Assembly (NCBI GenBank): GCA_035533875.1
Contig: DATLSZ010000020.1
Span: 14,146 to 78,145 of the forward strand
Reading direction: 5' to 3'
Length of the DNA stretch: 64,000 nucleotides
Origin: Candidatus Acidiferrales bacterium
GTDB lineage: Bacteria; Patescibacteriota; Microgenomatia; Levybacterales; UBA12049
Below, piece after piece: positions 4,435-57,768 of this stretch. The notes beneath the pieces were generated by a model, which saw only the letters and a list, made by a program, of their open reading frames with translations, was not told the DNA's origin and ran no database searches. A program made the translations under genes and the position numbers. Numbering within the stretch: position 1 is the first letter of the stretch; each line of letters begins with the position of its first letter.

Positions 4435-4496
4435 GATTGAAGATTAAAGATTTAAGAATTTCTTAAATCCTAAATCTTACATCTTAAATCTAATTT
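4435..4496. repeat. Two opposed tandem heptamer arrays that form a long AT-rich hairpin
   Basis: GATTGAA GATTAAA GATTTAA GAATTTC, then CTTAAAT CCTAAAT CTTACAT CTTAAAT CTAATTT. The core GATTTAAGAA-T-TTCTTAAATC is a perfect 10-bp inverted repeat, and the arms extend to about 19 nt with 2 mismatches. Confidence 0.8.
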
Positions 4497-6417
4497 ATTC
4501 AACCACTTCACCTTCGACTGGTTTTTCGTCGTCTTTCTTATCCTTCTTTTCCTCATCAGAACCCTCTTCGGTTTTGCCTTCCTTCTCTTCACTTTCAATC
4601 TCCGGTTCTGATTGTGCCTGCTGTCCCTGCTGATAGGCAGCTTCTCCTATCTTTTGCAGTGAATCTGAAAGCTCTCTCGTCTTTGTTTCCAGGTCTTCTT
4701 TTGAACCGCTGTCCAGAATATCTTTCAGTGCCTTCATCTTCTCTTCAACGTCTGTCTTTATCTCGGATGATACTTTATCGCCAGCATCCTTCAATGATTT
4801 TTCTGCGGTAAACAGCAGTGCGTCTGCGTGATTGCGTGCTTCGATCTTTTCTTTCTTTTCCTCATCTTCTTTTGCATGAGCTTCTGCCTCTTTGGTCATC
4901 TTCTCGACTTCCTCTTTGGAGAGACCGGTTGATCCGGTGATCTTGATGCTCTGCTCTTTTCCGGATGCCTTATCTTTTGCCTTTACATTAAGAATTCCAT
5001 TGGCATCGATATCGAAAGTCACCTCAACTTGCGGTACGCCACGTGGCGCTGGGGGAATTCCGTCCAAGATGAAGCGGCCGAGTGATTTATTATCCGTCGC
5101 CATCGGACGCTCTCCCTGCAGGACATTAATTTCAACTTGGGTTTGATTGTCTGCTGCGGTTGAGAAAACTTGTGACTTACTGGTCGGGATCGTTGTGTTG
5201 CGGTTAATGAGTGGTGTTGAGACGCCGCCAAGAGTTTCCAATCCCAACGTTAAGGGTGTGACATCCAACAGCAAGACATCTTTTACTTCCCCGCCGAGAA
5301 CTCCTGCCTGTACGGCAGCACCGATTGCGACGACTTCATCAGGATTGACTGAGCGGTTGGGCTCTTTGCCGAAGAACTTGCTGACGACCTCAACGATCTT
5401 TGGCATGCGTGTCATACCGCCGACCAAGATGACTTCATCGATGTCTGATACTTTTTTCCCTGCATCTTTGAGCGCTTTCTCAACCGGCTTGAGTGAATTC
5501 TGGATCAACTCATCAACAATCTGCTCAAGCTTTGCCCGTGTCAGTGTCATCGTCAGATGGAGCGGCCCATCTTTTCCTTGGGTAATGAAAGGCTGATTGA
5601 TCTGCGCTTCCTGTGATGTGGAGAGTTCTATTTTTGCTTTCTCAGCCGATTCTTTCAGCCGCTGCAGCGCCTGTGGGTCTTTACGAAGATCCACATTATT
5701 TTCCTTTTTGAACTCATCGGCAATATAATCGATGATCTTTTTATCGAAATCATCCCCGCCAAGATGCGTGTCACCGTTGGTTGATTTTACTTCGTAAACT
5801 CCCTCACCGAGTTCGAGAATGGAAATGTCAAACGTCCCGCCGCCGAGATCATATACTGCGATGGTATGGGCGTTTTTCTTATCCAAACCATAAGCAAGTG
5901 CTGCCGCAGTCGGTTCATTAATGATTCGTAAAACTTCCAAACCGGCAATCTCTCCTGCTTGTTTGGTCGCTTGCCGTTCACTGTCGTCAAAATATGCCGG
6001 AACGGTGATAACAGCTTGCGTTACTTTGTCGCCGATGTATGATTCTGCATCTGATTTGATCTTCTGAAGAATCATCGCGCTGACTTCCTGTGGGGTGTAG
6101 GTCTTGCCGTCAACTTCAACAACTGCCATATCGTCACGACCTGCTTTAATAATATACGGCAACCATTTGATATCCTCCTGAACAGTCGGATCGTTGAATT
6201 TCTTCCCCATGAGCCGCTTGATAGAAAAGATTGTTTCTTTTGCTTTGAGTACCAATTGCCGTTTGGCGACATCACCGACGACATGTGTCTTCGGGTCAAC
6301 GACCGAGGGGATGGTGTTGCGTCCTTCGGCAGAATGGATCACTTTTGGTGCTCCACCTTCCATGACTGCAACACATGAATTTGTTGTACCTAGATCAATA
6401 CCAATTATTTTTCCCAT
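4495..6417 (-). CDS. dnaK: Molecular chaperone DnaK (Hsp70)
   Basis: 640 aa. [23 protein letters not shown] and [11 protein letters not shown] are Hsp70 signatures, and the tail is acidic. Confidence 0.97.
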
Positions 6418-6421
6418 AATT

Positions 6422-6937
6422 TTATTTTCCTTTGCCTACTTTCACTTGTGCTGCCCGTAATAATTTATCATATAATAAAAATCCAATACGCAGCTCTTCA
6501 AGAACGCTTCCGTCTTCTCCAACGTCAGTAGCTATTGCTTCCATCAGATTGGGATCAAATTTCTTCCCAACCGTCTCAATTTTTGTCACCCCTTCTGCTT
6601 TCAGTACATCGAGGAATTGCTGAATACTGACTTCTACGTTCTTGTCTTGGGTATGCTGATAGGCCAATATCAGTGTATCCAAAACAGTCAATATTCGCAA
6701 GAGCAATTCTTTATTTGCCGACCTTATCCACTCACTCTTCTCATCCTGCACTCTTTTTTGTAAATTCTGGTAATCTGCCAAAGCTCTCTTGTATTTATTC
6801 TCAGCTTCCTCAATCTGCGCTTTTACTTCCTCAAGTTCATCGATAACTTCTTCACCTTCAGTTTCTTCTAAATATTCCACTTCCATTGCGTCCGTCGCAA
6901 TGTCTTCGTTTTTCTTTTTATCGTTATCATTATTCAT
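6422..6937 (-). CDS. grpE: Nucleotide exchange factor GrpE
   Basis: 171 aa. A coiled-coil N-terminus ([14 protein letters not shown]) and a C-terminal beta domain, positioned between hrcA and dnaK. Confidence 0.9.
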
Positions 6938-6972
6938 CTTTAATCTTCAATCCTAAATCTTAAATCTCGCTT
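6938..6972. repeat. Tandem heptamer array that fills the hrcA-grpE spacer
   Basis: CTTTAAT CTTCAAT CCTAAAT CTTAAAT CTCGCTT. It runs from the base after the grpE start codon to the hrcA stop. Confidence 0.8.
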
Positions 6973-7703
6973 TACCACCCCTTCGCGCTTGTCTTAATCA
7001 GATCCGCGAAGTAGCGGACTGTCGGGATGATTGATGTATAGTGCAGTCTAGCCGGTCCGAGTACACCGATCCTGCCATGAACATTCATCGGCGTTGCATA
7101 TTCGGTATAAATAAACCCATACGGACCCTTCAAGCTACCGCCAAGCTCATCTTCAATCAGCACATGGATATCCTCATCATCATTCGTGTTGGCAAAGATA
7201 CTTTCAAAACTTCCATATTCATCAAGCGCCTCAAGAAGCGTCTTGGTTACATCTATATCAAAGAACTCCGGCATCTCAAGAATATTTGCATATCCTGAGC
7301 AATAAATATCACCTTCACTCGTTACTGCGACAGCAAGTGTGTTGGTTTTCTCTGCGAGCGATCTTGTCGTTTCTTTGAGAAACCGCTGCATCCGTTCACG
7401 GTAATCCCAAACTTTTTCTTTCAACGCGACTTCTTCTACCGTTGAGAGTTCCTTTTCTTTCATCAACTCCCGAACGTAAAATTTCATCCCAGCCGCAGTC
7501 GGGATACGTCCTGCCGATGAATGCGGTTTTTTCAGGTATCCGTATTCCGAAAGCTTGACCATCTCATTGCGGATCGTCGCCGGACTTGCACTGAGATTAT
7601 GCTTTTTTTCAATTGTCTCGGATCCAACCGGTTCGGCTGTATCGATATACTCTTCGATAACGCTTCGAAGAATCTCGACTTGCCGCTGCGTTAAATTATG
7701 CAT
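6972..7703 (-). CDS. hrcA: Heat-inducible transcription repressor HrcA (short form, 243 aa)
   Basis: N-terminal winged-helix region LTQRQVEILRSVIEEYIDTAEPVGSETI...ATIRNEM..L...GYL. It is the first gene of the heat-shock operon, and a CIRCE-like site lies upstream. Confidence 0.85.
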   Translation of the reverse strand: MHNLTQRQVEILRSVIEEYIDTAEPVGSETIEKKHNLSASPATIRNEMVKLSEYGYLKKPHSSAGRIPTAAGMKFYVRELMKEKELSTVEEVALKEKVWDYRERMQRFLKETTRSLAEKTNTLAVAVTSEGDIYCSGYANILEMPEFFDIDVTKTLLEALDEYGSFESIFANTNDDEDIHVLIEDELGGSLKGPYGFIYTEYATPMNVHGRIGVLGPARLHYTSIIPTVRYFADLIKTSAKGW

Positions 7704-7710
7704 AATGAGT

Positions 7711-7759
7711 TAGTGAATAGTGACTAGTAATTAGTGATTAGTAAAATCTAAACCTAAAA
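7711..7759. repeat. Tandem heptamer array (TAGTRAN family) in the hrcA 5' region
   Basis: TAGTGAA TAGTGAC TAGTAAT TAGTGAT TAGTAAA ATCTAAA CCTAAAA. Confidence 0.8.
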
Positions 7760-7804
7760 ACTGCCCCCTAAACGCTAATTTCGTAATCCGCTGAGCAAAT
7801 CGGA

Positions 7805-7841
7805 TTAGCAATAATATAGCACGAGTGCCAACTCTTGTCAA
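7805..7841 (-). promoter_or_regulatory. Putative hrcA promoter overlapped by a degenerate CIRCE operator
   Basis: Minus strand: TTGACA (7841..7836), 17 nt, TATATT (7818..7813). Plus strand: TTAGCAATA-N9-GAGTGCCAA (7805..7831), compared with the CIRCE consensus TTAGCACTC-N9-GAGTGCTAA (7/9 and 8/9 matches). Confidence 0.55.
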
Positions 7842-8737: not shown

Positions 8738-9715
8738 GTGAAAAAATTTCATTTTCTCTTTGCTTTTTTTCTAATTTTTATAGTAGTCACTTTTTCTACA
8801 TTATCTTTGGTGACAAAAACTGCTTATGCAAAGAGTTGTACGGCAAACGGGCATGAATGTACCGGTCAAACATATTGTAAAGATACAAAGAATGGAGGAG
8901 ATTGTTCTGCTTTTGTTGGTTTCGGAACTCCTCCAACTTGTGCCTGTGCACCAAAACAAACGACTGGCTCCTGCACGTCAGATAACCAATGTTCAACGAA
9001 CTATTGCACTAATAAAAACGGAGGAGGAGAATGCTCTAACAGCGGAGGCGCCTTGAATCCAACGTATAATTGTATCTGTGGACAAAAGCAAACAAAAGGA
9101 TCCTGTTCGACAGATGCGCAATGTTCAAACGGAACATATTGTGAAGACAATAAGGGTGGCGGATCATGTCCGCCATTTACCGGTTTTGGTACGCAACCCA
9201 GTTGCAGCTGTAAAGCAAAACAAACAAAAGGATCCTGTGCTGTAAACTCACAATGTGCTAACGGTTATTACTGTGGTGCGGCAGGTGGTGGAGAATGTCC
9301 ACCATTCACAGGCTTCAACAGTACTCAAACTATATGTGCATGTGTAAAAAACGGTACTAATTATAACTCTGCACCCACTCCGCTCCCTGGTCCCCCTTCT
9401 CCTCCGTGTCAAAATTGGAGTAATGGAGAGTGTTTGACCTTTACTTCTGCTTTTGGACCGATCGCAACCAATCCATCCGGATTTGTTAAAACAATTTTTG
9501 GTATTCTTCTTAGTATCTCCGGTGGCATTGCCCTGCTTCTTATTATTAAGGCAGGATACCAACTGATGACCTCTCAAGGCAAACCCGAGCAAATCCAGCA
9601 GGGTAGAGATCAACTGATTGCCGCTATCGTCGGGCTTATCTTCCTTATCTTCTCTTTTGTGTTCCTGCAATTAATCGGATTCGATATCCTGCATATTTAC
9701 GGATTTGGCGCATGA
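8738..9715 (+). CDS. Secreted cysteine-rich repeat protein fused to a C-terminal T4SS-pilin-like two-helix domain
   Basis: GTG start. Signal peptide ends ...TKTAYA/KSC. Four tandem ~44-aa, 6-Cys repeats (KQT[KT]GSC..[ND].QC....YC.....GG.C..F.GF......C.C). A Pro-rich linker PTPLPGPPSPPC precedes the pilin-like domain FGPIATNPSGFVKTIFGILLSISGGIALLLIIKAGYQLMTSQGKP... Confidence 0.8.
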   Translation: MKKFHFLFAFFLIFIVVTFSTLSLVTKTAYAKSCTANGHECTGQTYCKDTKNGGDCSAFVGFGTPPTCACAPKQTTGSCTSDNQCSTNYCTNKNGGGECSNSGGALNPTYNCICGQKQTKGSCSTDAQCSNGTYCEDNKGGGSCPPFTGFGTQPSCSCKAKQTKGSCAVNSQCANGYYCGAAGGGECPPFTGFNSTQTICACVKNGTNYNSAPTPLPGPPSPPCQNWSNGECLTFTSAFGPIATNPSGFVKTIFGILLSISGGIALLLIIKAGYQLMTSQGKPEQIQQGRDQLIAAIVGLIFLIFSFVFLQLIGFDILHIYGFGA

Positions 9716-9845: not shown

Positions 9846-11171
9846 GTGAAAAAATATATAGTTTTTGCCGGCTCAACACTATTCTTCATTTTCTCATTTT
9901 TATCTCAGAACATACCTGTTTCATATGCCATCCCCGTACCTATCTGTAATCCTCCTCCAGGTACAACAAGAAATACGGCTGGCCTAGGGGAAAAATGTAA
10001 CTATCATAGTATTACTTGCAATTATCAAATAGAGTGTAGTGCAGGACTTACCTGTGATACTCATCTTTATCCAGATTCCCTCTGTGTCTCTACCAAAGCA
10101 AAAGCAGTAAATTGTTCATGCAATCACCCAGGTGCTGATGCGACAAAAACACCTGGTGTAAACAGATTTACCTGTAATGGTCAGCAATTCTATTGCAGTA
10201 CGTCAAACCTCTCTTGTTATGCCAGTAATAACAATATTGTTACCGCAAGCATTGTAGATAGTAAAGAACGTAGTAATTTTAATAATCAGTTTCCTCCACA
10301 ACAATATACCGTTAAAGGTGTTATCTGTAAACCATATCAACACAAAGCAATATGCTCATGTACAACGCCAAATAAAGCCGGAGGCGGGAACAATGAATTT
10401 AAGTGCAATGATACATCCGGAAAATCAATTGGTGTTGGATCTTGCGGAAGTGTTCATGACGCATGTTCGGATACTCCTGGTGTATCTATAGATGGCAACC
10501 TTATAAATCCTAATCCTAATCCTTCAGGCAATATCGGTACAGGATGGAACGTCACGGGTATCGCCTGCCATGGTCTCGTAGCGAAGTGTACCTGTACTCA
10601 TAACAACGGTTCCGGGAGCGGACAAAATGGATTTTCGTGTACAAATCCGGATACTAGTTCAAAATTAAAAACAGGAGGCGGCTATTGTAATGGGACGCAA
10701 TACGCATGTCAAAATGCTCCAGGCTTTTCTGTTGATACATCAACAACATCGAATTATTCAGGATTTTTAGCAGCTAATGGTGGCTATAGCATCGAAGGAA
10801 TTAAATGTACAGCATCGACACCTTCTGCACCCACACCGCTTCCTCCTCCACCGTCACCTCCGTGTCAAAATTGGAGTAACGGAGAGTGCACAACCTTTAC
10901 TTCTGCTTTTGGACCGATCGCAACCAATCCATCCGGATTTGTTAAATCAATTTTTGGTATTTTACTGAGTATTTCAGGAGGAATTGCCCTGCTTCTTATT
11001 ATTAAGGCAGGATACCAACTGATGACGTCTCAAGGCAAACCCGAGCAAATCCAGCAGGGTAGAGATCAACTGATTGCCGCTATCGTCGGGCTTATCTTCC
11101 TTATCTTCTCCTTTGTGTTCCTGCAATTAATCGGATTCGATATCCTGCATATTTACGGATTTGGCGCATGA
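9846..11171 (+). CDS. Secreted cysteine-rich protein fused to a C-terminal T4SS-pilin-like domain (paralog of 8738..9715)
   Basis: 441 aa with a GTG start and the signal peptide ...NIPVSYA/IP. The different Cys-rich ectodomain carries repeated C.C(T/N).P/H.N..G..N.F.C motifs. The same PPPSPPCQNWSNGEC linker is followed by a near-identical pilin-like C-terminus. Confidence 0.8.
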   Translation: MKKYIVFAGSTLFFIFSFLSQNIPVSYAIPVPICNPPPGTTRNTAGLGEKCNYHSITCNYQIECSAGLTCDTHLYPDSLCVSTKAKAVNCSCNHPGADATKTPGVNRFTCNGQQFYCSTSNLSCYASNNNIVTASIVDSKERSNFNNQFPPQQYTVKGVICKPYQHKAICSCTTPNKAGGGNNEFKCNDTSGKSIGVGSCGSVHDACSDTPGVSIDGNLINPNPNPSGNIGTGWNVTGIACHGLVAKCTCTHNNGSGSGQNGFSCTNPDTSSKLKTGGGYCNGTQYACQNAPGFSVDTSTTSNYSGFLAANGGYSIEGIKCTASTPSAPTPLPPPPSPPCQNWSNGECTTFTSAFGPIATNPSGFVKSIFGILLSISGGIALLLIIKAGYQLMTSQGKPEQIQQGRDQLIAAIVGLIFLIFSFVFLQLIGFDILHIYGFGA

Positions 11172-11610: not shown

Positions 11611-13101
11611 ATGGCAAAATTTTATATCACAGCGGCAATTCCTTATGTCAATGCCAAACCTCATATCGGTCATGCACTCGAGTTCGTACAAACTGACGTA
11701 ATCGCCAGATACCACAAGCTGAAAGGATTTGAAACCCGTATGCTCTCAGGCGGCGATGAAAATGCGTTGAAAAATGTCCAGGCAGCCGAAAAAGAAAAAA
11801 TGCTCGTTCAAGAATTTGTGGATAAAAATACCAAACTCTTTGAAAATCTCGCTCATCAACTTAATGTACAATTTGATGTCTTTCAAAAAGGCAGCGACCA
11901 ATCACATCATTATCCGGCTTCTCAAAAATTGTGGGAGTTATGTCAAAAAAACGGTGACATTTATAAAAAGAAATACAAAGGACTTTACTGTGTCGGCTGT
12001 GAATTATTTTATACCCGTGATGAACTGGATGAAAACGGTGAATGTTATGAGCACCCTGGCAAGCCCTTGGAAGAAGTAGAGGAAGAAAATTATTTTTTTA
12101 AGCTTTCAGACTATACCGATAAAGTGCTCAAACTTATTGAATCAAATCAACTTGAAATCGTTCCTGATTTCCGACGGAACGAAGTCTTGGCGTTTGTTAA
12201 AAAAGGACTTGAAGATATCAGCATCTCACGATCAAATGAACGGGCAAAAAATTGGGGAGTGCCAGTGCCGGGAGATGACACGCAGCGGATGTATGTCTGG
12301 TTTGACGCACTCAATATTTATCAAAGTGGTATCGGATTTGGTTGGGATGAGGAATCCTACAAAAAGTGGTGGCCGGCAGATGTACACGTCATAGGAAAAG
12401 GTATTATCAGATTCCATGCTGTGTATTGGCCTGCATTTCTTATGTCCGCGGGACTTGAATTACCAAAAAAATTGTTCGTCCATGAGTACTTCACAGTTGA
12501 TGGCAAAAAAATGTCCAAAACGCTTGGCAATGTCATTGACCCAGTTGAGTTAATTAAAAAATACGGAACCGACGCTTTACGATTCTATTTCCTTAAATAT
12601 TTTTCTCCTTTCTCTGATGGTGACTTTTCAGAAGAGAAATTTAAAACTGCATATAATGCAGACCTCGCGAATGGACTGGGGAATCTTGTTGCGAGAGTGG
12701 CTAAACTATGTGAGAAGGAAGATTTTGAATTTACAATTTTTGATTACAAAAATACGAAGCCCCCAAAAGTTGAAAATAGTCTCATCTTACAAGCAATAGA
12801 AAAAGGAGAATTTAATGAAGCATTACAGATAATATGGCAATCAGATATTAAATGGGGTCATTTGTGGCTTAATGAAGACCAATCAAGAAGTATTAGAACT
12901 ACAGATCAAACAATTAATGAACAACAGCCATGGACTCTTGATAAGATCGACTTGCAAAACAAACTACACTTATATGTAGATAATATACGTGCCATCGCAT
13001 ATTTTTTGCAACCGTTTATGCCCGAGACTGCTGAAAAAATTCTTGAACAATTCAAAGGGCCGAAAATTAAGAGCTCAGCACCACTATTCCCGAGATTATG
13101 A
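11611..13101 (+). CDS. metG: Methionyl-tRNA synthetase
   Basis: FYITAAIPYVNAKPHIGHALE (HIGH-type), the KMSKTLGN (KMSKS) motif and a CxxC knuckle (YCVGCELFY). I prefer the ATG at 11611 over the TTG at 11587. Confidence 0.92.
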   Translation: MAKFYITAAIPYVNAKPHIGHALEFVQTDVIARYHKLKGFETRMLSGGDENALKNVQAAEKEKMLVQEFVDKNTKLFENLAHQLNVQFDVFQKGSDQSHHYPASQKLWELCQKNGDIYKKKYKGLYCVGCELFYTRDELDENGECYEHPGKPLEEVEEENYFFKLSDYTDKVLKLIESNQLEIVPDFRRNEVLAFVKKGLEDISISRSNERAKNWGVPVPGDDTQRMYVWFDALNIYQSGIGFGWDEESYKKWWPADVHVIGKGIIRFHAVYWPAFLMSAGLELPKKLFVHEYFTVDGKKMSKTLGNVIDPVELIKKYGTDALRFYFLKYFSPFSDGDFSEEKFKTAYNADLANGLGNLVARVAKLCEKEDFEFTIFDYKNTKPPKVENSLILQAIEKGEFNEALQIIWQSDIKWGHLWLNEDQSRSIRTTDQTINEQQPWTLDKIDLQNKLHLYVDNIRAIAYFLQPFMPETAEKILEQFKGPKIKSSAPLFPRL

Positions 13102-15551: not shown

Positions 15552-15622
15552 TCAGAAAACTCGGAGAATCAGAATATCTGACAGTCCGATTTTCAAAAAA
15601 TCTGATAATCCGAGTTTTCTGA
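15552..15622 (+). promoter_or_regulatory. Long composite hairpin in the GT2 / GT-C spacer that ends 5 nt before the next start codon
   Basis: A perfect 13-bp inverted repeat, CAGAAAACTCGGA (15553..15565) and TCCGAGTTTTCTG (15609..15621), is extended by ATCAGA (15568..15573) / TCTGAT (15601..15606). Small inner hairpins are TCAGA-ATA-TCTGA and GATTTT-CAA-AAAATC. Confidence 0.6.
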
Positions 15623-15626
15623 AAAT

Positions 15627-17180
15627 ATGAGATTTCTGGCCTGTATAGAAAAAAAGAAATTTACTTGGGTACTTATTGTGCTCTGTGTAGCATTTTTCTT
15701 TTTACGTCTTCCATCACTCATTGAACCTTACTGGTATGGTGATGAAGGGGTGTATGAAGTTATCGGTCAAGCAATGGATCAAGGTCGGCTGCTTTATCAG
15801 GATATTTGGGATAACAAACCACCACTACTGTATACTATTTATGCCATAGCGCAAGGTGACCAGCAGGTCGTCGAAACAATATCTGCTTTCTTTGGAATTC
15901 TTGCTATCATCGGTATCTTCATACTCACACAAAACCTTTTTAATAAAACACGAATCAGTATACTATCATCTCTGGTCTTTGTCCTGCTCTTGGGTACTCC
16001 GCTTCTGGAAGGAAATATTGCCAATGCCGAAGTATTCATGCTTCCCTTCACTATCTTCGCCGGCTTACTCATCTATCAACACACAACTCAAACACAAAAT
16101 AATTCAAAACAATCTTCAATCTTTAATCTTCAATCTTTAATCTTTATTGCCGGCCTTCTCCTAGGCATCGCGTTCCTTTTTAAAATTGTTGCAATTTTTG
16201 ATTTCGCTGCGTTCTTCCTGTTTCTTCTCATTAACAGACTACCTGAAAAACTGTCTTGGAAATCATTTAAAAAGGCATTTGCCAAAAAACATTTGCCTAA
16301 TGCCCTATCTGTATGGAAGCAACCGCAAACACGGATATATCAATATATCATTGTCGGTTTTTTTCTTCCATTCATTTTGACAGTCATTTATTTCTTCTTA
16401 AATCATTCTTTAGTAGATTTTCTCCAGGCTGTATTCTTGGGAAACGTCGATTATGTTGCATGGGGTAATAGCCTCTTTGGACTTTCAAATGGATTGCTGT
16501 TACTCAAAATTGTAATCCTTGTCATTGGTCTCTCTGTAATTATTTGGAAAAGAAAACAGTTTTCCAAACCCGCACTCTTTATCTGGTTATGGATTCTCTT
16601 TTCAATATTTAGCGCGTTCTTTTCGGAACGTCCCTATACCCATTATGTTATTGTTCTCTTGCCGAGCTTTTGTTTATTGTTCGGTTTGATATTTACCGAA
16701 AAAAATATAAGAAGCCGTCTCATTGCGGCCGTAGGCATAATTGCTATTTTAGTGATTACTTCATTTCAATTTCAGTTCAATGTTCCCAAATCAATAGCGT
16801 ATTATCATAATGCGATTCAATTTGTGAAAGGATCTGAAAGCGTAGAAACATATCAATCCTTTTTTGACACCAAAACTCCTCGCGACTATATGGTCGCTAC
16901 ATTTATCAATGACCACACCTCACCTTCCGAAAATGTCTTTATTTGGGGAGACAGCCCCCAGATCTACGCACTTTCACATAAATTACCTCCAGGAAAATAT
17001 ACGGTTGCCTACCACATATCGCAAAATAATGCTGTTAACCAAACACAAATAGCTATCAATCGAGCAAAACCAAAATATATAATTGCATTGTCGGAAGCTC
17101 AACCCTTGCCGTTTGATCTTCCGCTCTATATAATGCGATACAATATATCCGGAGCGACAATTTATGAAAGGAGTTTCTGA
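15627..17180 (+). CDS. GT-C fold glycosyltransferase (ArnT/PMT, family 39/83-like)
   Basis: 517 aa, polytopic. The first-loop motif is PYWYGDEGVYEVIGQAM..GRLLYQDIWDNKPPLLY. Confidence 0.7.
   Translation: MRFLACIEKKKFTWVLIVLCVAFFFLRLPSLIEPYWYGDEGVYEVIGQAMDQGRLLYQDIWDNKPPLLYTIYAIAQGDQQVVETISAFFGILAIIGIFILTQNLFNKTRISILSSLVFVLLLGTPLLEGNIANAEVFMLPFTIFAGLLIYQHTTQTQNNSKQSSIFNLQSLIFIAGLLLGIAFLFKIVAIFDFAAFFLFLLINRLPEKLSWKSFKKAFAKKHLPNALSVWKQPQTRIYQYIIVGFFLPFILTVIYFFLNHSLVDFLQAVFLGNVDYVAWGNSLFGLSNGLLLLKIVILVIGLSVIIWKRKQFSKPALFIWLWILFSIFSAFFSERPYTHYVIVLLPSFCLLFGLIFTEKNIRSRLIAAVGIIAILVITSFQFQFNVPKSIAYYHNAIQFVKGSESVETYQSFFDTKTPRDYMVATFINDHTSPSENVFIWGDSPQIYALSHKLPPGKYTVAYHISQNNAVNQTQIAINRAKPKYIIALSEAQPLPFDLPLYIMRYNISGATIYERSF
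16114..16148. repeat. Tandem heptamer array inside the GT-C coding sequence
   Basis: CTTCAAT CTTTAAT CTTCAAT CTTTAAT CTTTATT belongs to the same family as the intergenic arrays at 6938 and 55373. It is translated as SSIFNLQSLIFI. Confidence 0.8.
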
Positions 17181-42391: not shown

Positions 42392-43876
42392 ATGGCAATC
42401 CTACCCCATTATAACCTTATCGCTAAAAAACTCAAAAAGGTACTAAAATCCAAAAAATTCAGCTTTGGCAAAAAACACTTCAAAGTTTTTGGGAAAAACA
42501 TCTTTTGGTTCAGTTTGGGAGGTGCACTCGGATTATTCTTCTTCGTCAGTTTTCTCTATATTGCATACGAAAAAATTCACGTCAACAGTGTCTATAACGG
42601 TGTTTTTGTGGACGGGGTAAATTTCGGTGGAAAAGATCCGGAACAAATACAAGACTACTTCCTCACAAAAAACAGAATCATACAAAAAACAACAATCACC
42701 CTAAGGTCCAACGACCAAACGATTGCAACAATCTCCGCAAGACAAATAGATTTTGGCTATGATGAAAATCTCCTCGCGGACCAGGCAATGACCGTCGGTC
42801 GATCAGGAAATAACGCTATTACCAATATAAGCCTTATTGTGCAGGCGTATTTCAATACAATTGATCTGCCACCCGCATACCATTACTCTGAGCAAAAACT
42901 CAATGACTACCTTGATCAAGTCAAGAAAAAAACAGACGTGCCACCGGTTAATCCACTCTTTAATTTCCAAGGTGGCAAAGTCGTCACCTTCCGTACCGGC
43001 ACTGACGGAAAAATGCTTGATGAGGAAACACTCAAAAATGAAATTCTTGATAAATTGAAAGAATCCGTATTGACGAATAGTACACAACAGCTTGTGCTGG
43101 CAATGCCCGTCCAAACAATCCACGCAAAAAGTGCAACGGATGAGGCAAACCGTCTAGGAATCAAAGAAGAAGTCTCTGAAGGAACCTCTCTATTCCATCA
43201 TTCGGCAACTGAACGTATTTTTAATGTCGCGCTTGCTGCAAGCCGATTAAATGGCGTCATTATCAAACCCGGCGAAATTTTTTCATTTGATAAAACGGTC
43301 GGTGATATTTCTTCTCTCTCGGGGTACAAACAAGCGTATGTCATTGAAAACGGCAAGACTGTCCTTGGCGACGGTGGAGGCGTCTGCCAAGTATCAACAA
43401 CCCTCTTCAGAGCGGCGCTCAATGCAGGCCTCCCCATCGTTGAACGACACCAGCACGCATATCGTGTCGGGTATTATGAAGAAGATTCAGGTCCTGGCAT
43501 TGATGCAGCAATTTACTCACCAACCGTTGACTTGAAATTCAAAAATGATACCGGACACGCTTTGTTAATACAAACCATCGTTGATTTTTCAGCGCAGCGG
43601 CTTACGTTTGCGCTGTATGGAACAAAAGATACCAACCGACAAATAAGTATCTCAACACCTGTTGTACTGTCGGAAACTCCTGCACCGCCGCCATTGTATC
43701 AGGATGATCCAACGCTTGCTGCAGGACAAATAAAACAAGTCGATTTTGCCGCTGCAGGCGCGGATGTCTACTTCACCCGTACTGTAACAGAGAATGACAA
43801 AGTAACTATCTATGATAAATTTACTTCGGATTACAAACCATGGCAGGCAATATACATGCGGGGAACGAAGAGTTAA
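42392..43876 (+). CDS. VanW-family protein with a G5-like C-terminal domain
   Basis: An N-terminal TM precedes the VanW core PGEIFSFDKTVGDIS...GGGVCQVSTTLFRAALNAGLPIVERHQH. An AAGGAG Shine-Dalgarno sequence lies upstream. Confidence 0.8.
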   Translation: MAILPHYNLIAKKLKKVLKSKKFSFGKKHFKVFGKNIFWFSLGGALGLFFFVSFLYIAYEKIHVNSVYNGVFVDGVNFGGKDPEQIQDYFLTKNRIIQKTTITLRSNDQTIATISARQIDFGYDENLLADQAMTVGRSGNNAITNISLIVQAYFNTIDLPPAYHYSEQKLNDYLDQVKKKTDVPPVNPLFNFQGGKVVTFRTGTDGKMLDEETLKNEILDKLKESVLTNSTQQLVLAMPVQTIHAKSATDEANRLGIKEEVSEGTSLFHHSATERIFNVALAASRLNGVIIKPGEIFSFDKTVGDISSLSGYKQAYVIENGKTVLGDGGGVCQVSTTLFRAALNAGLPIVERHQHAYRVGYYEEDSGPGIDAAIYSPTVDLKFKNDTGHALLIQTIVDFSAQRLTFALYGTKDTNRQISISTPVVLSETPAPPPLYQDDPTLAAGQIKQVDFAAAGADVYFTRTVTENDKVTIYDKFTSDYKPWQAIYMRGTKS

Positions 43877-43902
43877 TTTTCAATTTACAATTTGCAATTT
43901 TC
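43875..43902. repeat. Tandem heptamer array (AATTTNC family)
   Basis: AATTTTC AATTTAC AATTTGC AATTTTC. It is followed by the palindrome AAGGGATCCCTT and a looser 7-nt-periodic ATTGAAA tract (43956..44004). Confidence 0.75.
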
Positions 43903-44006
43903 CCAAAGGGATCCCTTCGGGACAATCAATAATCAATTTCTTAATGTTTTAAACTTTGAAAATTGAATCATTGAAAATTCAATAAAAATTAAAAATTGAA
44001 AAATTT

Positions 44007-46317: not shown

Positions 46318-46935
46318 ATGGGAAGACGATTGTCCTATATCTTACTCAGCTTTTTGATACTTACCGTCTTCTCAACCCACACCGTCTCCGCAGCCCAACA
46401 GCAAAATATACCAACCTTTTTCTCTTTTCTTGAAAATTATCTCCTCGCCTTTACTTCCATTACATCATATAACAACAAAGTTCTTGCTGCCCATACAGCG
46501 TCCCCAACAAACCAGCCTCCTACGCACCATTCACAACCATCTCCTCAGCTAACGCCACCACCAATCCAACAAAATGTATCTCTCTCAGATGTCTCATCGT
46601 ATATTTTGAATGGCGTCAATACGTATCGGTCATCACTCGGATTATCTCAGGTCCACGCAAGCAGCCAAACGTGTAACTTCGCCGCAACCCGCGCACTGGA
46701 AATAACAACCAGCTTCAGTCATGACGCATTTTATAGCCGGGTCAACAATCATACGATACCGTATTCATCCTGGTCACGTGCGGTTGAGAATATCGCGGAA
46801 GCACCCGATTATAAAGAGGTCGTCACGCTTTGGAAGAATTCACCCGGCCACGCCGCCAACATGCGGGACAATACACCATATGTCTGTATCATCCGAAACG
46901 GATCTTACTACGCCTATGAAGGCATGCGCCCCTAA
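46318..46935 (+). CDS. Secreted CAP/SCP (PR-1-like) domain protein
   Basis: A signal peptide and a Pro/Gln linker are followed by YRSSLGL..., AVENIAE and WKNSPGHAANM motifs. Confidence 0.7.
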   Translation: MGRRLSYILLSFLILTVFSTHTVSAAQQQNIPTFFSFLENYLLAFTSITSYNNKVLAAHTASPTNQPPTHHSQPSPQLTPPPIQQNVSLSDVSSYILNGVNTYRSSLGLSQVHASSQTCNFAATRALEITTSFSHDAFYSRVNNHTIPYSSWSRAVENIAEAPDYKEVVTLWKNSPGHAANMRDNTPYVCIIRNGSYYAYEGMRP

Positions 46936-46952
46936 ACGCTAAACGCTAAACG
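46932..46952. repeat. CTAAACG x3 tandem heptamer array
   Basis: Three perfect copies. The stop codon of the CAP gene (TAA, 46933..46935) lies inside the first unit. Confidence 0.9.
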
Positions 46953-46960
46953 CTCTCATA

Positions 46961-46969
46961 TGCTACAAT
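46961..46969 (+). promoter_or_regulatory. Extended -10 box TGCTACAAT, 6 nt upstream of the rmuC ATG (leaderless)
   Basis: The cassette AAACGCTCTCATATGCTACAATACCCCTATG is nearly identical to the one at 48799..48830. Confidence 0.6.
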
Positions 46970-46975
46970 ACCCCT

Positions 46976-48410: not shown

Positions 48411-48731
48411 TTACTTCTGCAATATAAATGTCCCCATTGGACCAAAGCATTGTAATTCAGATCCTCGTTTTAACGAAAACAATGCTTTTTTAAAGCTGCT
48501 TTTCGTACGTCTTGTTGTAATCATCACACGCATTTCTCTTGGTGATGATGAAATGGTAAAAAAGCGAGTCGATCCTTCACTATCCGCATGCTCATGCGGC
48601 AGAGTTATCTGTACATATTGTCCCGCATGAAACTTGAATTCTTTCGGCGCACGGAAATAAAACGATGAGATATCGTTCATCAGCTTTTCTTTTTTAATAA
48701 ATGAGAGAAAAAATGGCTTTACCTTAACCAT
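48411..48731 (-). CDS. Isolated FAD-binding (FNR-like, FAD_binding_6-type) domain fragment, possibly a gene remnant
   Basis: 106 aa. FKFHAGQYVQITLP...RFFTISSSP...GPMGTF matches the N-terminal half of ferredoxin-reductase-type proteins. No NAD-binding half is present in any frame downstream. Confidence 0.5.
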   Translation of the reverse strand: MVKVKPFFLSFIKKEKLMNDISSFYFRAPKEFKFHAGQYVQITLPHEHADSEGSTRFFTISSSPREMRVMITTRRTKSSFKKALFSLKRGSELQCFGPMGTFILQK

Positions 48732-48755
48732 ACTGTTATTATACCAATCAACAAA

Positions 48756-48804
48756 CTAAACGCTAAACGCTAAACGCTAAACGCTAAACGCTAAACGCTA
48801 AACG
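48756..48804. repeat. CTAAACG x7 tandem heptamer array
   Basis: Seven perfect tandem copies (49 bp) immediately upstream of the promoter cassette. Confidence 0.95.
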
Positions 48805-48812
48805 CTCTCATA

Positions 48813-48821
48813 TGCTACAAT
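48813..48821 (+). promoter_or_regulatory. Extended -10 box TGCTACAAT, 6 nt upstream of the helicase ATG (leaderless)
   Basis: AAACGCTCTCATATGCTACAATACCTCCATG is a duplicate of the rmuC cassette. Confidence 0.6.
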
Positions 48822-48827
48822 ACCTCC

Positions 48828-53082: not shown

Positions 53083-53089
53083 ATAGCAG

Positions 53090-54569: not shown

Positions 54570-54579
54570 GATACAATAG

Positions 54580-55371
54580 TCAGTTACTTGCGCTTGTATA
54601 ATGACGAAGCGCATATGACCAAAACCGCAGACTGATAAAAAGCAACCCAACGCCGAAAACAAGTGCGATAACAACTCCCTGCCAAGAGAGCAATCCAAGA
54701 AGCGCCCTCCCCGGATATGTCATCATAATGCCTACCGGAATCACAAAGGTAATCAGCCCACGCAATGGTTCTTGATAAACTTCAATCGGCAATCTACCCA
54801 TCTGAGTAAGATCACGGTAAAGCATAACGGTATTATCAACTGCAGTTGATAATATACCGGTTCCAAGGACAAAAATATGAAACCCAAGAGAAATAATAAA
54901 TCCGTTCATGAGTAACAAAATGTATAAAAGAACACGCAAAACTGTCACATGATCGCTGTGCCATCCCGCAAAAATGATAAAACCGGCCGAAAGAATAAGA
55001 ACAAAAAGATCCAGCATATCGCTTCCGCCAAATAGTGGGTGAAAAAGCGACGGGAGCGGTTTGAGAAGCAGGTTATCAAAATAGCCATTCAAAATCTGCT
55101 GACGGAAACGGTAGACATTGCGGAAAAAGAATTGCGGCAGTGTATCAAGAAAATTAAATGTCGCGTAAAAGAGCACGATTTCCCAGAAGGTATATCCCGC
55201 TATTACTTTGGCTCTGTTCACCAAAAGCACAAGAAACAGCAGAAAAAATACATACCGGAGTAATTTCCCCAATAAAAATAACACCGCGCCAAAACGCGAC
55301 TGAAACGCTATCTGTGTTGTCCCGAGAGTCAACTTCCACCAAATAATTAAATATCTATTTAATCTCTTCAT
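54580..55371 (-). CDS. ABC-2-type transporter permease (uncharacterised ABC system, ABC2_membrane_6-like)
   Basis: 263 aa with 6 predicted TM helices. It is the last gene of the ATPase-permease-permease triad. Confidence 0.7.
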   Translation of the reverse strand: MKRLNRYLIIWWKLTLGTTQIAFQSRFGAVLFLLGKLLRYVFFLLFLVLLVNRAKVIAGYTFWEIVLFYATFNFLDTLPQFFFRNVYRFRQQILNGYFDNLLLKPLPSLFHPLFGGSDMLDLFVLILSAGFIIFAGWHSDHVTVLRVLLYILLLMNGFIISLGFHIFVLGTGILSTAVDNTVMLYRDLTQMGRLPIEVYQEPLRGLITFVIPVGIMMTYPGRALLGLLSWQGVVIALVFGVGLLFISLRFWSYALRHYTSASN

Positions 55372-55372
55372 T

Positions 55373-55414
55373 TTTTAATCTTTAATCTTCAATCCTTAAT
55401 CTTCAATCTAATGT
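55373..55414. repeat. Tandem heptamer array that fills the spacer between the two permease genes
   Basis: TTTTAAT CTTTAAT CTTCAAT CCTTAAT CTTCAAT CTAATGT. The spacer is 42 nt, which is 6 x 7. Confidence 0.85.
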
Positions 55415-56208
55415 TAATTCCCTTCGCTGCTATAAACCCGTAATCCTTTTCGCCAAACCCACGTTACCAAAAAATAGAGCAGCAAACACCAGACAAGAGC
55501 AATACAAAATCCTTGGATCAAACCATTTGAAGACAATTTCCCTAAATAAATCTGGAGGGGAAAATATTGCAAATACCCAAATGGAAGAAAAGCAAAGACT
55601 CGCTGCATAGGTACGGGAAGAATATCAAGTGGGAAAAGTCCTCCCGCAAAAAAACTGACGAGAGTGAAAAAGATAAACCGAGGCGCCCATACCTCAGGAC
55701 TCCAAAAAGCAATCATCCCAAGAAGTGACCCGAGAAAAAAATTCATAACAACAGCAATACATATAGCACCTATCGTCAGCAAAACGGCAAAGATATTTGG
55801 CTGCAAGAATATCGACGGACGGAGAATAAAATAAATAATCGTTAATTCCGCCAGTGCAAAACTGACATTGAATAACTTATCCCCGATATCCCTCGCAAAC
55901 CAATACCCAAGATACCCAAAAGGCCTGATGAGAAACTGTGACAATTCACCATTATTGATATTGTCCCCCATCTCTTGTGTCCGTGTTGAAAAAACAATAC
56001 TGCCGATCAGCGACGCGCCCAAGACATACGTCAATATCAATGACCGTGAGTAACCGAAGATATGGCCATTTTGCGGAGTAACGGCAAGCCAAAGATAATA
56101 GACCGTTAATAGTTGCAACACATTCCGAAGCCGCCACATAGCGAAGTTAAAGCGGTATGACATCATCTCATCCCAGGTATTCTTTGCGACTTGCAAGTAG
56201 AGTTTCAT
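55414..56208 (-). CDS. ABC-2-type transporter permease (paralog)
   Basis: 264 aa, polytopic. It has the same architecture as 54580..55371. Confidence 0.7.
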   Translation of the reverse strand: MKLYLQVAKNTWDEMMSYRFNFAMWRLRNVLQLLTVYYLWLAVTPQNGHIFGYSRSLILTYVLGASLIGSIVFSTRTQEMGDNINNGELSQFLIRPFGYLGYWFARDIGDKLFNVSFALAELTIIYFILRPSIFLQPNIFAVLLTIGAICIAVVMNFFLGSLLGMIAFWSPEVWAPRFIFFTLVSFFAGGLFPLDILPVPMQRVFAFLPFGYLQYFPLQIYLGKLSSNGLIQGFCIALVWCLLLYFLVTWVWRKGLRVYSSEGN

Positions 56209-56213
56209 AAAAT

Positions 56214-56241
56214 TAGCGGCTAGCTACTAGCTGCTAGCGTT
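56214..56241. repeat. Tandem heptamer array (TAGCNNC family)
   Basis: TAGCGGC TAGCTAC TAGCTGC TAGCGTT. Confidence 0.75.
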
Positions 56242-56265
56242 TGGTTAAATTTGTAAAAGTAAAAA

Positions 56266-56300
56266 CTAGACGCTCGACGCTAAACGCTAGATGCTTGATT
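56266..56300. repeat. Degenerate CTNNACG heptamer array that overlaps the 3' end of the ABC ATPase gene
   Basis: CTAGACG CTCGACG CTAAACG CTAGATG CTTGATT. The last units encode the C-terminal ...NQASSV and the stop codon. Confidence 0.8.
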
Positions 56301-57263
56301 TGCGAACACATCCCTAATAATCTCCTCAATATTCGGTTCTTCAATATTGAGATCTTCAACGGGGAATTGCTCAAGCAATTTGGACGCGACATAATTTGAT
56401 TTATCGCGCGGTACAATAACAACAGCTTTTAATGGGTCAAAAGATGCCACCTCACCAAGCTGTTTTAATTTCTCACGCGTCACCGGTTTCTCAAAAATAA
56501 CGGTGATAGATTTATTCTTTGCATATTTCTTCACAATATTTGCGAGCTTTCCGTCATATAAAATTTTTCCGTGATCAATGATGATGACCCGCCTGCACAA
56601 CTCCTCGACATCTTTCATATAATGACTGGTGAGAATAACTGTTGCATTAAAATTCTCGTTGTATGCTTTGACAAAATCTCGCAGTTTCTGCTGCATTACG
56701 ACATCAAGCCCGATCGTCGGTTCATCCAAAAAAAGAATTTTTGGCGTATGGATCAACGCAGCAATCAGTTCACATTTCATCCGCTGACCGAGTGACAACT
56801 TGCGCACCTGCACCTGCAGAATATCTTCAACATCCAAGAGCTCTGATAATTCCGCTACTGTTTTATTATATTGATCCGCTGGGATCTCATAAATTTCTTT
56901 ATTAAGAAGAAACGAATCAATGGCCGGCAAATCCCACCACAGCTGATTTTTTTGTCCCATGACAAGGGAAATTTGCTTGAGATATTCATGTTTCCGTTGA
57001 AACGGCGTATATCCCAACACACTGACTTGCCCACTGGTCGGATAGAGCAAACCGGTGAGACATTTGAGCGTAGTTGTCTTTCCTGCGCCGTTTGGTCCAA
57101 TAAAACCAACCAGTTCCCCTTCGTCAATTTCAAACGAGATATCATTGACCGCCTTGGCATCATAATACGTGCGGTGGAACAATGATTTCATTGAACCGGC
57201 AAACCCCGGCTCCTTCTGATGGACTTGGTAAAATTTGGTTAAATGGTTTATTTGAATTACCAT
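56280..57263 (-). CDS. ABC transporter ATP-binding protein
   Basis: GPNGAGKTTTL (Walker A), LSLGQRMKCELIAAL (signature) and LFLDEPTIGLD (Walker B). I prefer the ATG at 57263 (MVIQINHL) to the TTG at 57269. Confidence 0.9.
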   Translation of the reverse strand: MVIQINHLTKFYQVHQKEPGFAGSMKSLFHRTYYDAKAVNDISFEIDEGELVGFIGPNGAGKTTTLKCLTGLLYPTSGQVSVLGYTPFQRKHEYLKQISLVMGQKNQLWWDLPAIDSFLLNKEIYEIPADQYNKTVAELSELLDVEDILQVQVRKLSLGQRMKCELIAALIHTPKILFLDEPTIGLDVVMQQKLRDFVKAYNENFNATVILTSHYMKDVEELCRRVIIIDHGKILYDGKLANIVKKYAKNKSITVIFEKPVTREKLKQLGEVASFDPLKAVVIVPRDKSNYVASKLLEQFPVEDLNIEEPNIEEIIRDVFANQASSV

Positions 57264-57267
57264 AGGC

Positions 57268-57302
57268 AAGTGACAAGTGAATAGTAACTAGTGATTAGGA
57301 CT
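57268..57302. repeat. Tandem heptamer array (AAGTGAN/TAGTRAN family)
   Basis: AAGTGAC AAGTGAA TAGTAAC TAGTGAT TAGGACT. It overlaps the stop and last codons of the 57288..57659 gene. Confidence 0.8.
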
Positions 57303-57659
57303 TTTATCTAATTTTGACGTTAACGTATTTAGCATACGAATGACTTCGTTAAGTAGTCCGCCAACTGTCTGATAGTCTTCAGCACTTGCGAAATCCAATT
57401 CTTGGGCAATAACAATCTGTGTTTCAAGTTCGAGAGCTGAAGCATATGCGATTAATAAACCACGTCTATATTCCTTACGCAATTTTCTCCCAAACCCTTC
57501 AGCAATATTTGACGGAATGGAAATTGCCGCTCGTCTCATTTGTGCAACTAAACCATATAACTCAGCTCTCGGAAATTTGTACGTTAAAAGGAAAATATCC
57601 TTTACAAGAAGAATAGACTTTTGCCAAACAATAAGATCTTTATATGAATGAATCTGCAT
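57288..57659 (-). CDS. Four-helix-bundle protein (23S rRNA intervening-sequence protein family)
   Basis: 123 aa. YKDLIVWQKS...LVAQMRRAAISIPSNIAEGFGR is the family hallmark. Confidence 0.8.
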   Translation of the reverse strand: MQIHSYKDLIVWQKSILLVKDIFLLTYKFPRAELYGLVAQMRRAAISIPSNIAEGFGRKLRKEYRRGLLIAYASALELETQIVIAQELDFASAEDYQTVGGLLNEVIRMLNTLTSKLDKSPNH

Positions 57660-57740
57660 ATAAGACTAGAAACTACAAAATAGTCACTAATCATTATCTC
57701 ACTTTTTTAAAGCTCGCAAACAGACCAAAATTCTTTTCCT

Positions 57741-57768
57741 ATTCACTAATTCCTAATCACTCGTCACT
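57741..57768. repeat. Heptamer-periodic tract (NNTCACT family)
   Basis: ATTCACT AATTCCT AATCACT CGTCACT. These units are the reverse complement of the AGTGANN units at 57268 and 7711. Confidence 0.65.

Follow-up and report, generated by a model that had tools for sequence, protein, structure and literature searches.

The 64 kb stretch of DNA analysed here (the window) carries about 13 loci, spread across 53 kb, at which units of seven nucleotides are repeated in tandem. Most of these short arrays occupy spacers between protein-coding genes, those of hrcA–grpE–dnaK–dnaJ and of an ABC transporter among them. One pair, composed of inverted NAGTGAN arrays, flanks a gene for a small protein of the family PF05635, which sits between the genes for RNase Y and an ABC ATPase. 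We describe the arrays and this cassette (Table 1), their counterparts in other bacteria and the explanations that may be offered for them.

Tandem 7 nt arrays had been listed in a first-pass annotation of the window, and each was recovered at, or within a few bases of, its coordinates by Tandem Repeats Finder and by our own lag-7 scan; the former returned 17 period-7 rows, which cover all of the earlier coordinates. When at least four units and at least 80% lag identity are required, the window holds 14 period-7 arrays against 0.0 in 20 first-order Markov simulations of it, and the same thresholds give one array at period 6 and none at periods 8–13. The arrays total 535 nt, of which 431 nt lie outside open reading frames (ORFs) and make up 8% of the non-ORF bases. 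A 50 kb stretch of Escherichia coli, used as a control, contained no period-7 arrays. The annotation had named confinement of the tracts to the window, or a lack of excess over periods 6 or 8, as outcomes that would overturn its proposal; neither is what we see. In 80 loci from relatives (1.34 Mb) we counted 117 arrays of period 7, 17 of period 6 and eight of period 8, so that period 7 exceeds its neighbours both in the window and in these loci. The over-representation of period 7 is lineage-wide, in the window genome and its relatives, and is patchy among the latter, where roughly 20 kb may hold anything from none to 8 arrays. Of 100 arrays from the window and relatives, 66 fall mostly within the 11% of sequence that lacks long ORFs, the gene calls in the fetched loci being crude longest-ORF calls.

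The DnaK protein of the window (4495–6417, minus strand) is 70–92% identical to proteins from metagenome-assembled genomes (MAGs). Because the informative labels on these relatives (Candidatus Levybacteria/Levyibacteriota, Gottesmanbacteria, Shapirobacteria, Roizmanbacteria, Microgenomates and Patescibacteria) all point the same way, we assign the window to a bacterium of the Candidate Phyla Radiation (CPR), Candidatus Levybacteria; about 30 of the 80 relatives bear the label 'uncultured Gammaproteobacteria' only. Proteins identical to those of the window (P0001 and P0241) appear in public records under the name 'Candidatus Acidoferrales bacterium'. Given the Levybacteria and other Microgenomates among the DnaK neighbours, the source MAG is probably mislabelled or mis-binned.

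Table 1. Heptanucleotide arrays and associated features of the window.
Feature	Position	Strand	Remarks
GC-rich hairpin with U run, resembling an intrinsic terminator	4401..4424	-	Between the array hairpin and the promoter-like GGGTATAAT of dnaJ
Inverse array, AAUCUUN units (mRNA sense); 3' arm of the dnaK–dnaJ spacer hairpin	4425..4460	-	
Array right after the dnaK stop codon; 5' arm of the hairpin	4461..4494	-	UUAGAUU UAAGAUG UAAGAUU UAGGAUU UAAGAAA (mRNA sense); Tandem Repeats Finder and lag-7 scan
Single AAGAUUN array, hrcA–grpE spacer	6936..6971	-	Predicted to be unstructured: -2.2 kcal/mol, z = -0.7
Single NTAGTRA array, divergent region 5' of hrcA	7710..7745	.	Unit family shared with the PF05635 cassette arms
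AATCTTN array, six units (42 nt), in frame within the GT39-family glycosyltransferase gene (15627–17180)	16108..16149	+	
CAATTTN array that starts at the VanW-domain gene's stop codon; left arm of an inverted pair	43872..43903	+	
Looser ATTGAAA/AATTNAA tract, inverse of CAATTTN; right arm	43956..44005	+	Ends 1 nt 5' of the next start codon
(CTAAACG)x3, reverse complement of TAGCGTT	46927..46957	+	Overlaps the stop codon of the CAP-domain gene; 5' of a leaderless-type rmuC promoter
(CTAAACG)x7, perfect, between two divergent extended -10 boxes	48749..48810	+	Predicted to be unstructured; same copy number in two other assemblies
Single AAGAUUN array between two ABC-2 permease genes	55367..55413	-	No Shine–Dalgarno sequence near the start codon
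TAGCNNC array, one arm of a gene-less inverted pair, ABC ATPase–permease spacer	56214..56241	-	
CTAGACG/CTAAACG array (reverse complement TAGCGTN), other arm of the gene-less pair	56266..56300	-	Overlaps the stop codon of the ATPase gene
3' arm of the PF05635 cassette, CUA-type units	57265..57302	-	Overlaps the PF05635 stop codon and abuts the ABC ATPase gene start
PF05635 gene, 123 aa; 23S rRNA intervening-sequence protein, four-helix bundle, Avd-like	57288..57659	-	Pfam E = 7.6e-35
5' arm of the PF05635 cassette	57741..57768	-	mRNA sense UUUAGUGA CGAGUGA UUAGGAA UUAGUGA AUAGGAA; TAG roughly every 7 nt

Three arrangements occur in the window: single arrays, inverted pairs that enclose no gene (4425–4494, 43872–44005 and 56214–56300) and the one pair around a gene. 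The first-pass annotation had for the most part listed the arrays as single tracts and spoke of unrelated unit sequences, and here our description departs from it. The three gene-less pairs, and 57265–57302 together with 57741–57768, are inverted pairs, and the list of families was too long. The unit CTAAACG is the reverse complement of TAGCGTT, the family of the array at 56266–56300, which itself stands inverted with respect to the related TAGCNNC array at 56214–56241; the AATTTNC array (43872–43903) and the ATTGAAA tract (43956–44005), listed separately, are likewise inverse copies, one of the other. Some of the unit families are thus related. Other observations carry over intact: the spacer between the ABC permease genes (42 nt, 55372–55413) and that between hrcA and grpE (34 nt, 6938–6971) consist wholly of array, and arrays may absorb stop codons, the TAA of the CAP-domain gene falling inside the first CTAAACG unit. 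That the arrays lie in intergenic spacers is true of most of them; the array at 16108–16149 is in the coding sequence of the full-length GT39-family gene and specifies the residues SSIFNLQSLIF, which belong to a loop that varies in length. Three homologues share this segment and others lack it. The spacer 5' of that gene carries a tandem repeat with periods of 24 and 17 nt (15569–15638; TCAGAAAATCTGACAATCCGAGTTT).

The single arrays at 6936, 7710, 46927, 48749 and 55367 are all predicted to be unstructured. The dnaK–dnaJ spacer is predicted to fold well: the 106 nt from 4395 to 4500, which comprise the array hairpin and the GC terminator hairpin, give -32.2 kcal/mol and z = -5.5. The order of elements in this spacer (stop codon, heptamer array, GC hairpin with a T run, TAGTATAAT box) recurs in many Levybacteria, and the unit sequence varies among the genomes. 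The AAGATTN family is common to the spacers of the window and of two relatives, L007 and L013, with DnaK proteins just 85–88% identical. The two CTAAACG arrays are each followed by an identical 20-mer, CTCTCATATGCTACAATACC (46953–46972 and 48805–48824), so that array and promoter form a two-copy module ahead of rmuC and of a gene for a UvrD/PD-(D/E)XK helicase-nuclease.

Contigs from other samples (L081–L089; ENA, JGI and Logan), 99.3–100% identical to the window, cover the arrays at 4425–4494, 6936, 7711, 48756, 55373, 56214–56300, 57265 and 57741. The first-pass annotation had proposed that slippage polymorphism be sought between strains; in this small sample, with six contigs at strain level, no covered array differs in unit number, and the only change is a single substitution. 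Since the same arrays are present in independent assemblies, an assembly artefact is ruled out. Two close genomes among the relatives, L008 and L011, differ slightly at one array. In another, L012, an (AAACAGT)n array 3' of dnaK (11916–12140) has at least 17 copies and is broken by an assembly gap (a run of N). The gap lies inside the array, and some relatives therefore have arrays long enough to break short-read assemblies.

The protein encoded in the window cassette also matches the bAvd-like family, more weakly than PF05635. Its sole relative by sequence in the Protein Data Bank is XCC0516 of Xanthomonas campestris (2GSC, E = 4e-22), an entry with five chains. PF05635/2GSC resembles Avd, the accessory protein of diversity-generating retroelements (DGRs) (PMC10053308), and Avd itself forms a positively charged barrel of five subunits (PMC6182149). 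Folding of the 546 nt cassette (z = -4.2) pairs the two arms in the minimum-free-energy and in the centroid structure alike, and the arm family recurs in the window at 7710–7745. An Rfam scan of the window at gathering thresholds returned tRNA-Pro only, with no known RNA family at the arrays and no rRNA; the cassette thus lies outside any 23S rRNA gene. The flanked gene matches PF05635/bAvd-like only and is not a Y1 transposase of the IS200/IS605 type.

Bracketing of this kind is not peculiar to the window but usual for PF05635 genes in many unrelated bacteria. The second PF05635 gene in the Levybacteria-group loci (L020) has inverted heptamer arrays of a different family on both sides. We fetched 80 metagenomic loci, on contigs of 30–65% G+C, which encode proteins 44–63% identical to that of the window and represent one PF05635 subfamily. 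The flanks of the gene are mutually inverted (score of at least 12) at 45 of 72 of these loci, compared with 0 of 72 when the flanks are shuffled, and one of 72 when they are mismatched between loci. Among 83 control genes taken from the same contigs, four have inverted flanks. Period-7 arrays of four or more units are present upstream of 24 of 79 PF05635 genes and two of 83 control genes, and downstream of 14 of 75 and four of 83, respectively; any period other than 7 occurs in the PF05635 flanks at most three times. The arm units include (AGGGACT)4(AGGGATT)4, (TAGTAGT)n, (GGCATTA)n and TAGCTTN. We also considered whether an identical PF05635 protein occurs in other contexts, which would be evidence of mobility, and rejected this, all matches being the same locus.

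A tblastn search of 72,556 plasmids gave PF05635 matches that are almost all cyanobacterial and mainly from the Nostocales. This order contains the classical hosts of short tandemly repeated repetitive (STRR) sequences. On a Nostoc edaphicum plasmid the gene is preceded by (GGGAACA)4 and followed by (TGTTCCC)5, on a Geminocystis plasmid it is flanked by GGGAARA and its inverse, and on an N. punctiforme plasmid one flank holds (AGTCAGG)4. Plasmids gamma (L170) and alpha (L171) of Nostoc PCC 7120 encode the same PF05635 protein (WP_010994075.1), with (CTCTGCC)n as the downstream arm. The expected site of the 5' arm, immediately upstream, is taken on plasmid gamma by a gene for an ISL3 transposase. 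Xanthomonas, the other genus known for intergenic heptamers, was tested as a prediction, and its PF05635 gene is indeed flanked by the published GGGAATC family. The gene (724–1173 in loci L176–L180) sits between accB and accC, with GGGAATCGGGAGTGGAGAATCGGGAATCGG upstream and the inverse CCCATTCCCCATTCCCGACTCCCTATTCCC downstream, both arms being of the GGGAATC type; the 3' arm ends at the start codon of accC, which abuts it directly without a Shine–Dalgarno sequence. Such arrays are specifically associated with PF05635 genes across several phyla.

The arms are related to the dispersed arrays around them. At more than 300 nt from the gene, the PF05635 contigs (219 kb) contain 38 period-7 arrays, compared with three each at periods 6 and 8. 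Of 26 such distant arrays, eight agree to within one mismatch with the arm unit found at their own locus, whereas the figure for the arm units of other loci is 3% (permutation p < 0.0005). Two families seen in the window as arrays away from the PF05635 gene, TAGCGTN and AAAGATT, act as PF05635 arms in the metagenomic loci L090, L146 and L159. Of these, L090 is syntenic with the window from 59542 to 56206, with 73–79% of nucleotides identical; the two PF05635 proteins share 60% identity. The host flank aligns as far as the first unit; within the arms the TAG (5') and CTA (3') columns align at 7 nt spacing, and the intervening four bases differ in both arms. The two arms have changed their units together, and a TAG/CTA core has been kept at 7 nt spacing.

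That core has further regularities. TAG runs toward the gene in 29 of 55 arms and away from it in nine, and within arrays (n = 19) mismatches are rarer in the TAG core than in the spacer (3.1% versus 7.7%, p = 0.012). Copy number at period 7 peaks at 3.5 and 4.5, that is, at four to five cores, whereas periods 5 and 6 decay monotonically. Two further patterns were set aside. A single hypervariable position per unit, which would be a signature of junction errors, became weak after correction for detection bias (sum-of-squares p = 0.0045; no significance for the maximum column). At the dnaK loci, the tendency of genomes to share unit families internally was modest and largely driven by the window (31 pairs, where permutations gave 19.5 on average and 36 at most).

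We favour the idea that the arrays are the cis elements of a partnership between gene and repeat, in which the partner is a PF05635 four-helix-bundle protein related to Avd, and put its chances at about even. The inverted arms, once transcribed, would pair into a long imperfect stem and insulate the cassette from the host operon, much as with the rRNA intervening sequences (IVSs) that RNase III excises. Since 7 is not divisible by 3, units that carry TAG or TAA would put a stop codon into every reading frame, a property noted by MacGregor for TAACTGA repeats (PMC4679880). A PF05635 oligomer, perhaps built like the pentameric barrel of its homologue Avd, might bind the array as a single strand, one core per subunit, in the manner of HutP, and this would explain both the 7 nt register and the size of four to five units. 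Single arrays and empty hairpins elsewhere could be further binding sites or remnants of the family, standing to PF05635 as REP sequences do to RAYTs (see below). New units would arise by slippage, which we retain as the default explanation of the origin and spread of the arrays, and the arrays would be stable over short evolutionary distances. The first-pass annotation had imagined a protein or RNA that reads a 7 nt register; for a protein there is now indirect support, since arrays flank PF05635 genes in the window, in metagenomic loci, on Nostocales plasmids and in Xanthomonas, often with matching families. Binding of PF05635 to the arrays, like RNase III processing of the arms, is what we infer by analogy.

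Several points weigh against this reading. A PF05635 protein alone cannot explain how arrays originate or spread, since it has no known catalytic activity. Just one of the approximately 13 array loci of the window touches a PF05635 gene, and because there are only two such genes in 1.4 Mb of Levybacteria-group sequence they are far outnumbered by the arrays. The metagenomic sample is a single subfamily, 44–63% identical to the window protein, and by a strict criterion period 7 is found in both arms at 13 of 82 loci and in neither at 36 of 82. Only about one third of the distant arrays match the local arm family. Many units (AAGATTN, GGGAATC and GGGAACA) contain no TAG, and the peak at four to five cores could partly reflect the segmentation of imperfect arrays. 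In the predicted folds of two empty pairs, 56205–56305 forms 5 bp helices every 7 nt (-22.6 kcal/mol, z = -1.3) and 43865–44010 pairs 43872–43903 with 43956–44005 around a small GC hairpin (z = -1.5); neither is more stable than shuffled sequence and for this reason we do not claim that they fold. Finally, the mechanistic steps of stem processing and oligomer binding rest on inference.

A wider version may be put forward tentatively: that PF05635 proteins are the missing readers of bacterial heptanucleotide repeats at large, a pentamer sitting on about five units and each lineage of the protein co-evolving with its unit, so as to span the STRR sequences of the Nostocales, GGGAATC of Xanthomonas and the arrays of the CPR. 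We regard this as possible, though on the doubtful side. If true, it would describe a widespread post-transcriptional or selfish system with a scope comparable to that of REP–RAYT. The observations matter in narrower ways as well. They extend heptamer repeats to the CPR, whose genomes are very compact and where, nevertheless, arrays occupy the stated share of non-coding bases in the window; and they tie the repeats to a specific, widespread and uncharacterised family related to the DGR accessory protein Avd. Through that tie the question becomes open to experiment in cultivable organisms, such as Nostoc or Xanthomonas with its accB–XCC0516–accC arrangement.

The first alternative is neutral replication slippage with a polymerase bias near 7 nt, as proposed by Mrazek (2007) and taken up in PMC4679880 and PMC4692102. 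Arrays would simply be tolerated in spacers, and the PF05635 cassettes would be a separate mobile element that inserts into, or is tolerated in, array hairpins. We consider this unlikely, although several observations speak for it: the units are A/T-rich, as are the spacers, the arrays are patchy among relatives (0–8 per 20 kb), one has expanded within the loop of a gene, and the idea of a polymerase bias already has a place in the literature just cited. On copy number the evidence is divided. The number of units differs within one family (CTAAACG x3 versus x7), and the close genomes L008 and L011 differ slightly at one array, yet unit number is constant at 0–0.7% divergence, even in the perfect sevenfold array, and it is peaked at four to five cores, unlike the monotonic distributions of periods 5 and 6. 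Unit sequence is likewise divided. Orthologous spacers of relatives carry different units, as slippage would allow, but AAGATTN has persisted in the dnaK–dnaJ spacer at a DnaK identity of only 85–88%, and both cassette arms switched family together with the TAG/CTA spacing kept. Slippage alone would not lead one to expect the inward bias of TAG (29 versus 9). Distant arrays also match the local arm family at ten times the expected frequency.

An explanation without PF05635 can also be built on translation and transcript punctuation, following the proposal of MacGregor for TAACTGA: arrays would supply stop codons in all frames, unstructured A/U tracts would serve as spacers or as initiation regions lacking a Shine–Dalgarno sequence, and inverted pairs would act as stabilisers or terminators. 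The single arrays are indeed predicted to be unstructured, the upstream stop codon often marks the start of an array or is overlapped by it, and those before grpE and both permease genes abut starts that lack a Shine–Dalgarno sequence. In co-directional spacers the sense strand of the array is more often A-rich than T-rich (33 versus 17) and G-rich than C-rich (30 versus 16); leaderless and Shine–Dalgarno-less starts are widespread in the genome, and BOGUAY has parallel features. We nonetheless judge the explanation improbable. Periods of 4, 5 and 8 would give stop codons in all frames equally well, so that period 7 is left unexplained, and so is the fact that PF05635 genes in particular are associated with arrays; the arrays are not uniform in orientation, CAATTTN and CTAAACG being free of stop codons relative to transcription; and many array spacers retain a normal Shine–Dalgarno sequence after the array. 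Two stricter forms of the idea were rejected: that arrays replace Shine–Dalgarno sequences, since the pattern is inconsistent and AAAGGA is retained 3' of the array in many spacers, and that stop codons are the sole reason for the arrays, since shorter periods not divisible by 3 would suffice.

It is very improbable that the arrays are contingency loci, hypermutable repeats that switch adjacent genes by gain or loss of units: some do lie in promoter regions, with (CTAAACG)x7 between divergent -10 boxes, and a precedent exists in the 7 bp repeats of the Haemophilus influenzae hmw promoters, 7 bp phase-variable repeats being known in that species (PMC8262952), but most arrays are imperfect, the covered ones show no copy-number difference in assemblies 99.3–100% identical (a small sample of three to four), their neighbours are housekeeping genes (hrcA–grpE–dnaK–dnaJ, rmuC, the UvrD-like helicase and the ABC transporter) and not genes of surface or variable function, and an array 5' of a -10 box can change its units without altering promoter spacing.

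Some other features of the window may be recorded. An extended -10 box (TGnTAnAAT) lies only 6–8 nt before the ATG of many first genes (46961–46978, plus strand; 48729–48746, minus; 48813–48830, plus), which suggests that leaderless mRNAs are widespread, and genes internal to operons use Shine–Dalgarno sequences of the AGGAGG type. The ORFs at 8738–9715 and 9846–11171 have near-identical sequence upstream (ttttttgccatgct..GTGAAA) and downstream, both carry a twofold CTTATCTTC repeat (at 9635 and 11091), and are probably tandem paralogues. A protein of 754 aa (22065–24329, minus strand) fuses a class I lysyl-tRNA synthetase domain to a C-terminal B3/4 domain. A small ORF 3' of dnaJ (3064–3360, minus strand) has a weak match to the Pfam family T4SS_pilin in strain contig L081.

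Heptanucleotide repeats have been known in cyanobacteria since 1990, and we are aware of no established function or partner protein. Their over-representation was described by Mrazek (2007; cited in PMC4679880 and PMC4692102), and by that year they were recognised in many bacteria as the long simple repeats in greatest excess. Our search of the literature, in which few subscription journals were covered, returned no report of such repeats in the CPR/Patescibacteria and none that links PF05635 to heptamer repeats. The first-pass annotation was aware of no counterpart for a genome of this kind; for the CPR this agrees with our search, but an excess of heptamers had already been recorded beyond the heterocystous cyanobacteria (Mrazek, 2007; the GGGAATC and TAACTGA repeats).

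Among the systems with which the arrays may be compared, the RNA sites of HutP and TRAP, ring-shaped proteins that recognise spaced triplets, may be likened to many of the arms, which have the form (UAG-N4)n with a core that appears to be conserved and a spacer that appears to vary. HutP binds UAG triplets separated by 4 nt spacers and thus has a 7 nt register (PMC2425495). Neither protein is homologous to PF05635, and many arrays have cores other than UAG.

The repetitive extragenic palindromic (REP) sequences, their paired form (REPINs) and the associated tyrosine transposases (RAYTs; PMC3116915) share with the window a set of dispersed intergenic repeats, often in inverted pairs, and a rare gene flanked by inverted copies. 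The equivalent here is seen in the window arms with their copy at 7710–7745, in GGGAATC of Xanthomonas and in the eight of 26 distant arrays that match an arm. In contrast to RAYTs, the flanked gene encodes a small four-helix-bundle protein without a known catalytic domain instead of a Y1 transposase, the repeats are tandem arrays and not a single palindrome, and we make no claim of mobility.

In the IVSs of 23S rRNA a PF05635 ORF is enclosed, as in the window, by inverted repeats able to form a long stem. RNase III cuts the stems of these sequences in rRNA. We know of no report of IVS stems built from heptamer arrays. Unlike an IVS, the window cassette lies between protein-coding genes (those for RNase Y and the ABC ATPase), as does that of Xanthomonas, between accB and accC.

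TAACTGA repeats occur in marine Beggiatoaceae and in some Cyanobacteria and Bacteroidetes (MacGregor, 2015; PMC4679880). Like the arrays of the window they are intergenic, come in sets of two to six copies, often end just before starts without a Shine–Dalgarno sequence, provide stop codons in three frames in one orientation and in some cases overlap upstream stop codons. They differ in having one unit sequence per genome and in being almost all direct: of 170 sets, only one is an inverted pair. S1, Csp or CsrA has been postulated as their binding protein and none identified (PMC4679880).

GGGAATC of Xanthomonas and GGGGAYT of Nostoc PCC 7120 are intergenic heptamers, some of them solitary and others paired in convergent, inverted orientation (Rehm et al., 2015; PMC4692102). 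X. campestris pv. campestris has about 186 GGGAATC sites, 70 of them convergent pairs; the position of these repeats is conserved between related genomes, their length and sequence vary, and most are transcribed (PMC4692102). The study makes no mention of the Xanthomonas PF05635 gene or of any PF05635 link. The Xanthomonas system is like that of the window in combining singles with inverted pairs and in having a PF05635 gene flanked by its own family. It has one dominant family where the window has about four, and its units and those of Nostoc are G-rich and discussed as G-quadruplex formers, whereas the units of the window cannot form quadruplexes.

A further comparison is with the STRR sequences or heptameric long simple sequence repeats (LSSRs). 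There too, tandem 7 nt units of several families per genome are dispersed and mostly intergenic, and period 7 is favoured over neighbouring periods; the comparison with the cyanobacterial repeats drawn in the first-pass annotation was apt. The canonical STRR units are CCCCAGT, TTGGTCA and CAACAGT, and none of these is found in tandem in the window. The window nevertheless fits the class, because unit sequence defines subfamilies and not the class itself. It differs in its host, a CPR bacterium of small genome size, in its A/T-rich units and in the shortness of its arrays, which have four to five units. With the arrays of the window, heptanucleotide repeats of the STRR type are recorded from a new lineage, the CPR.

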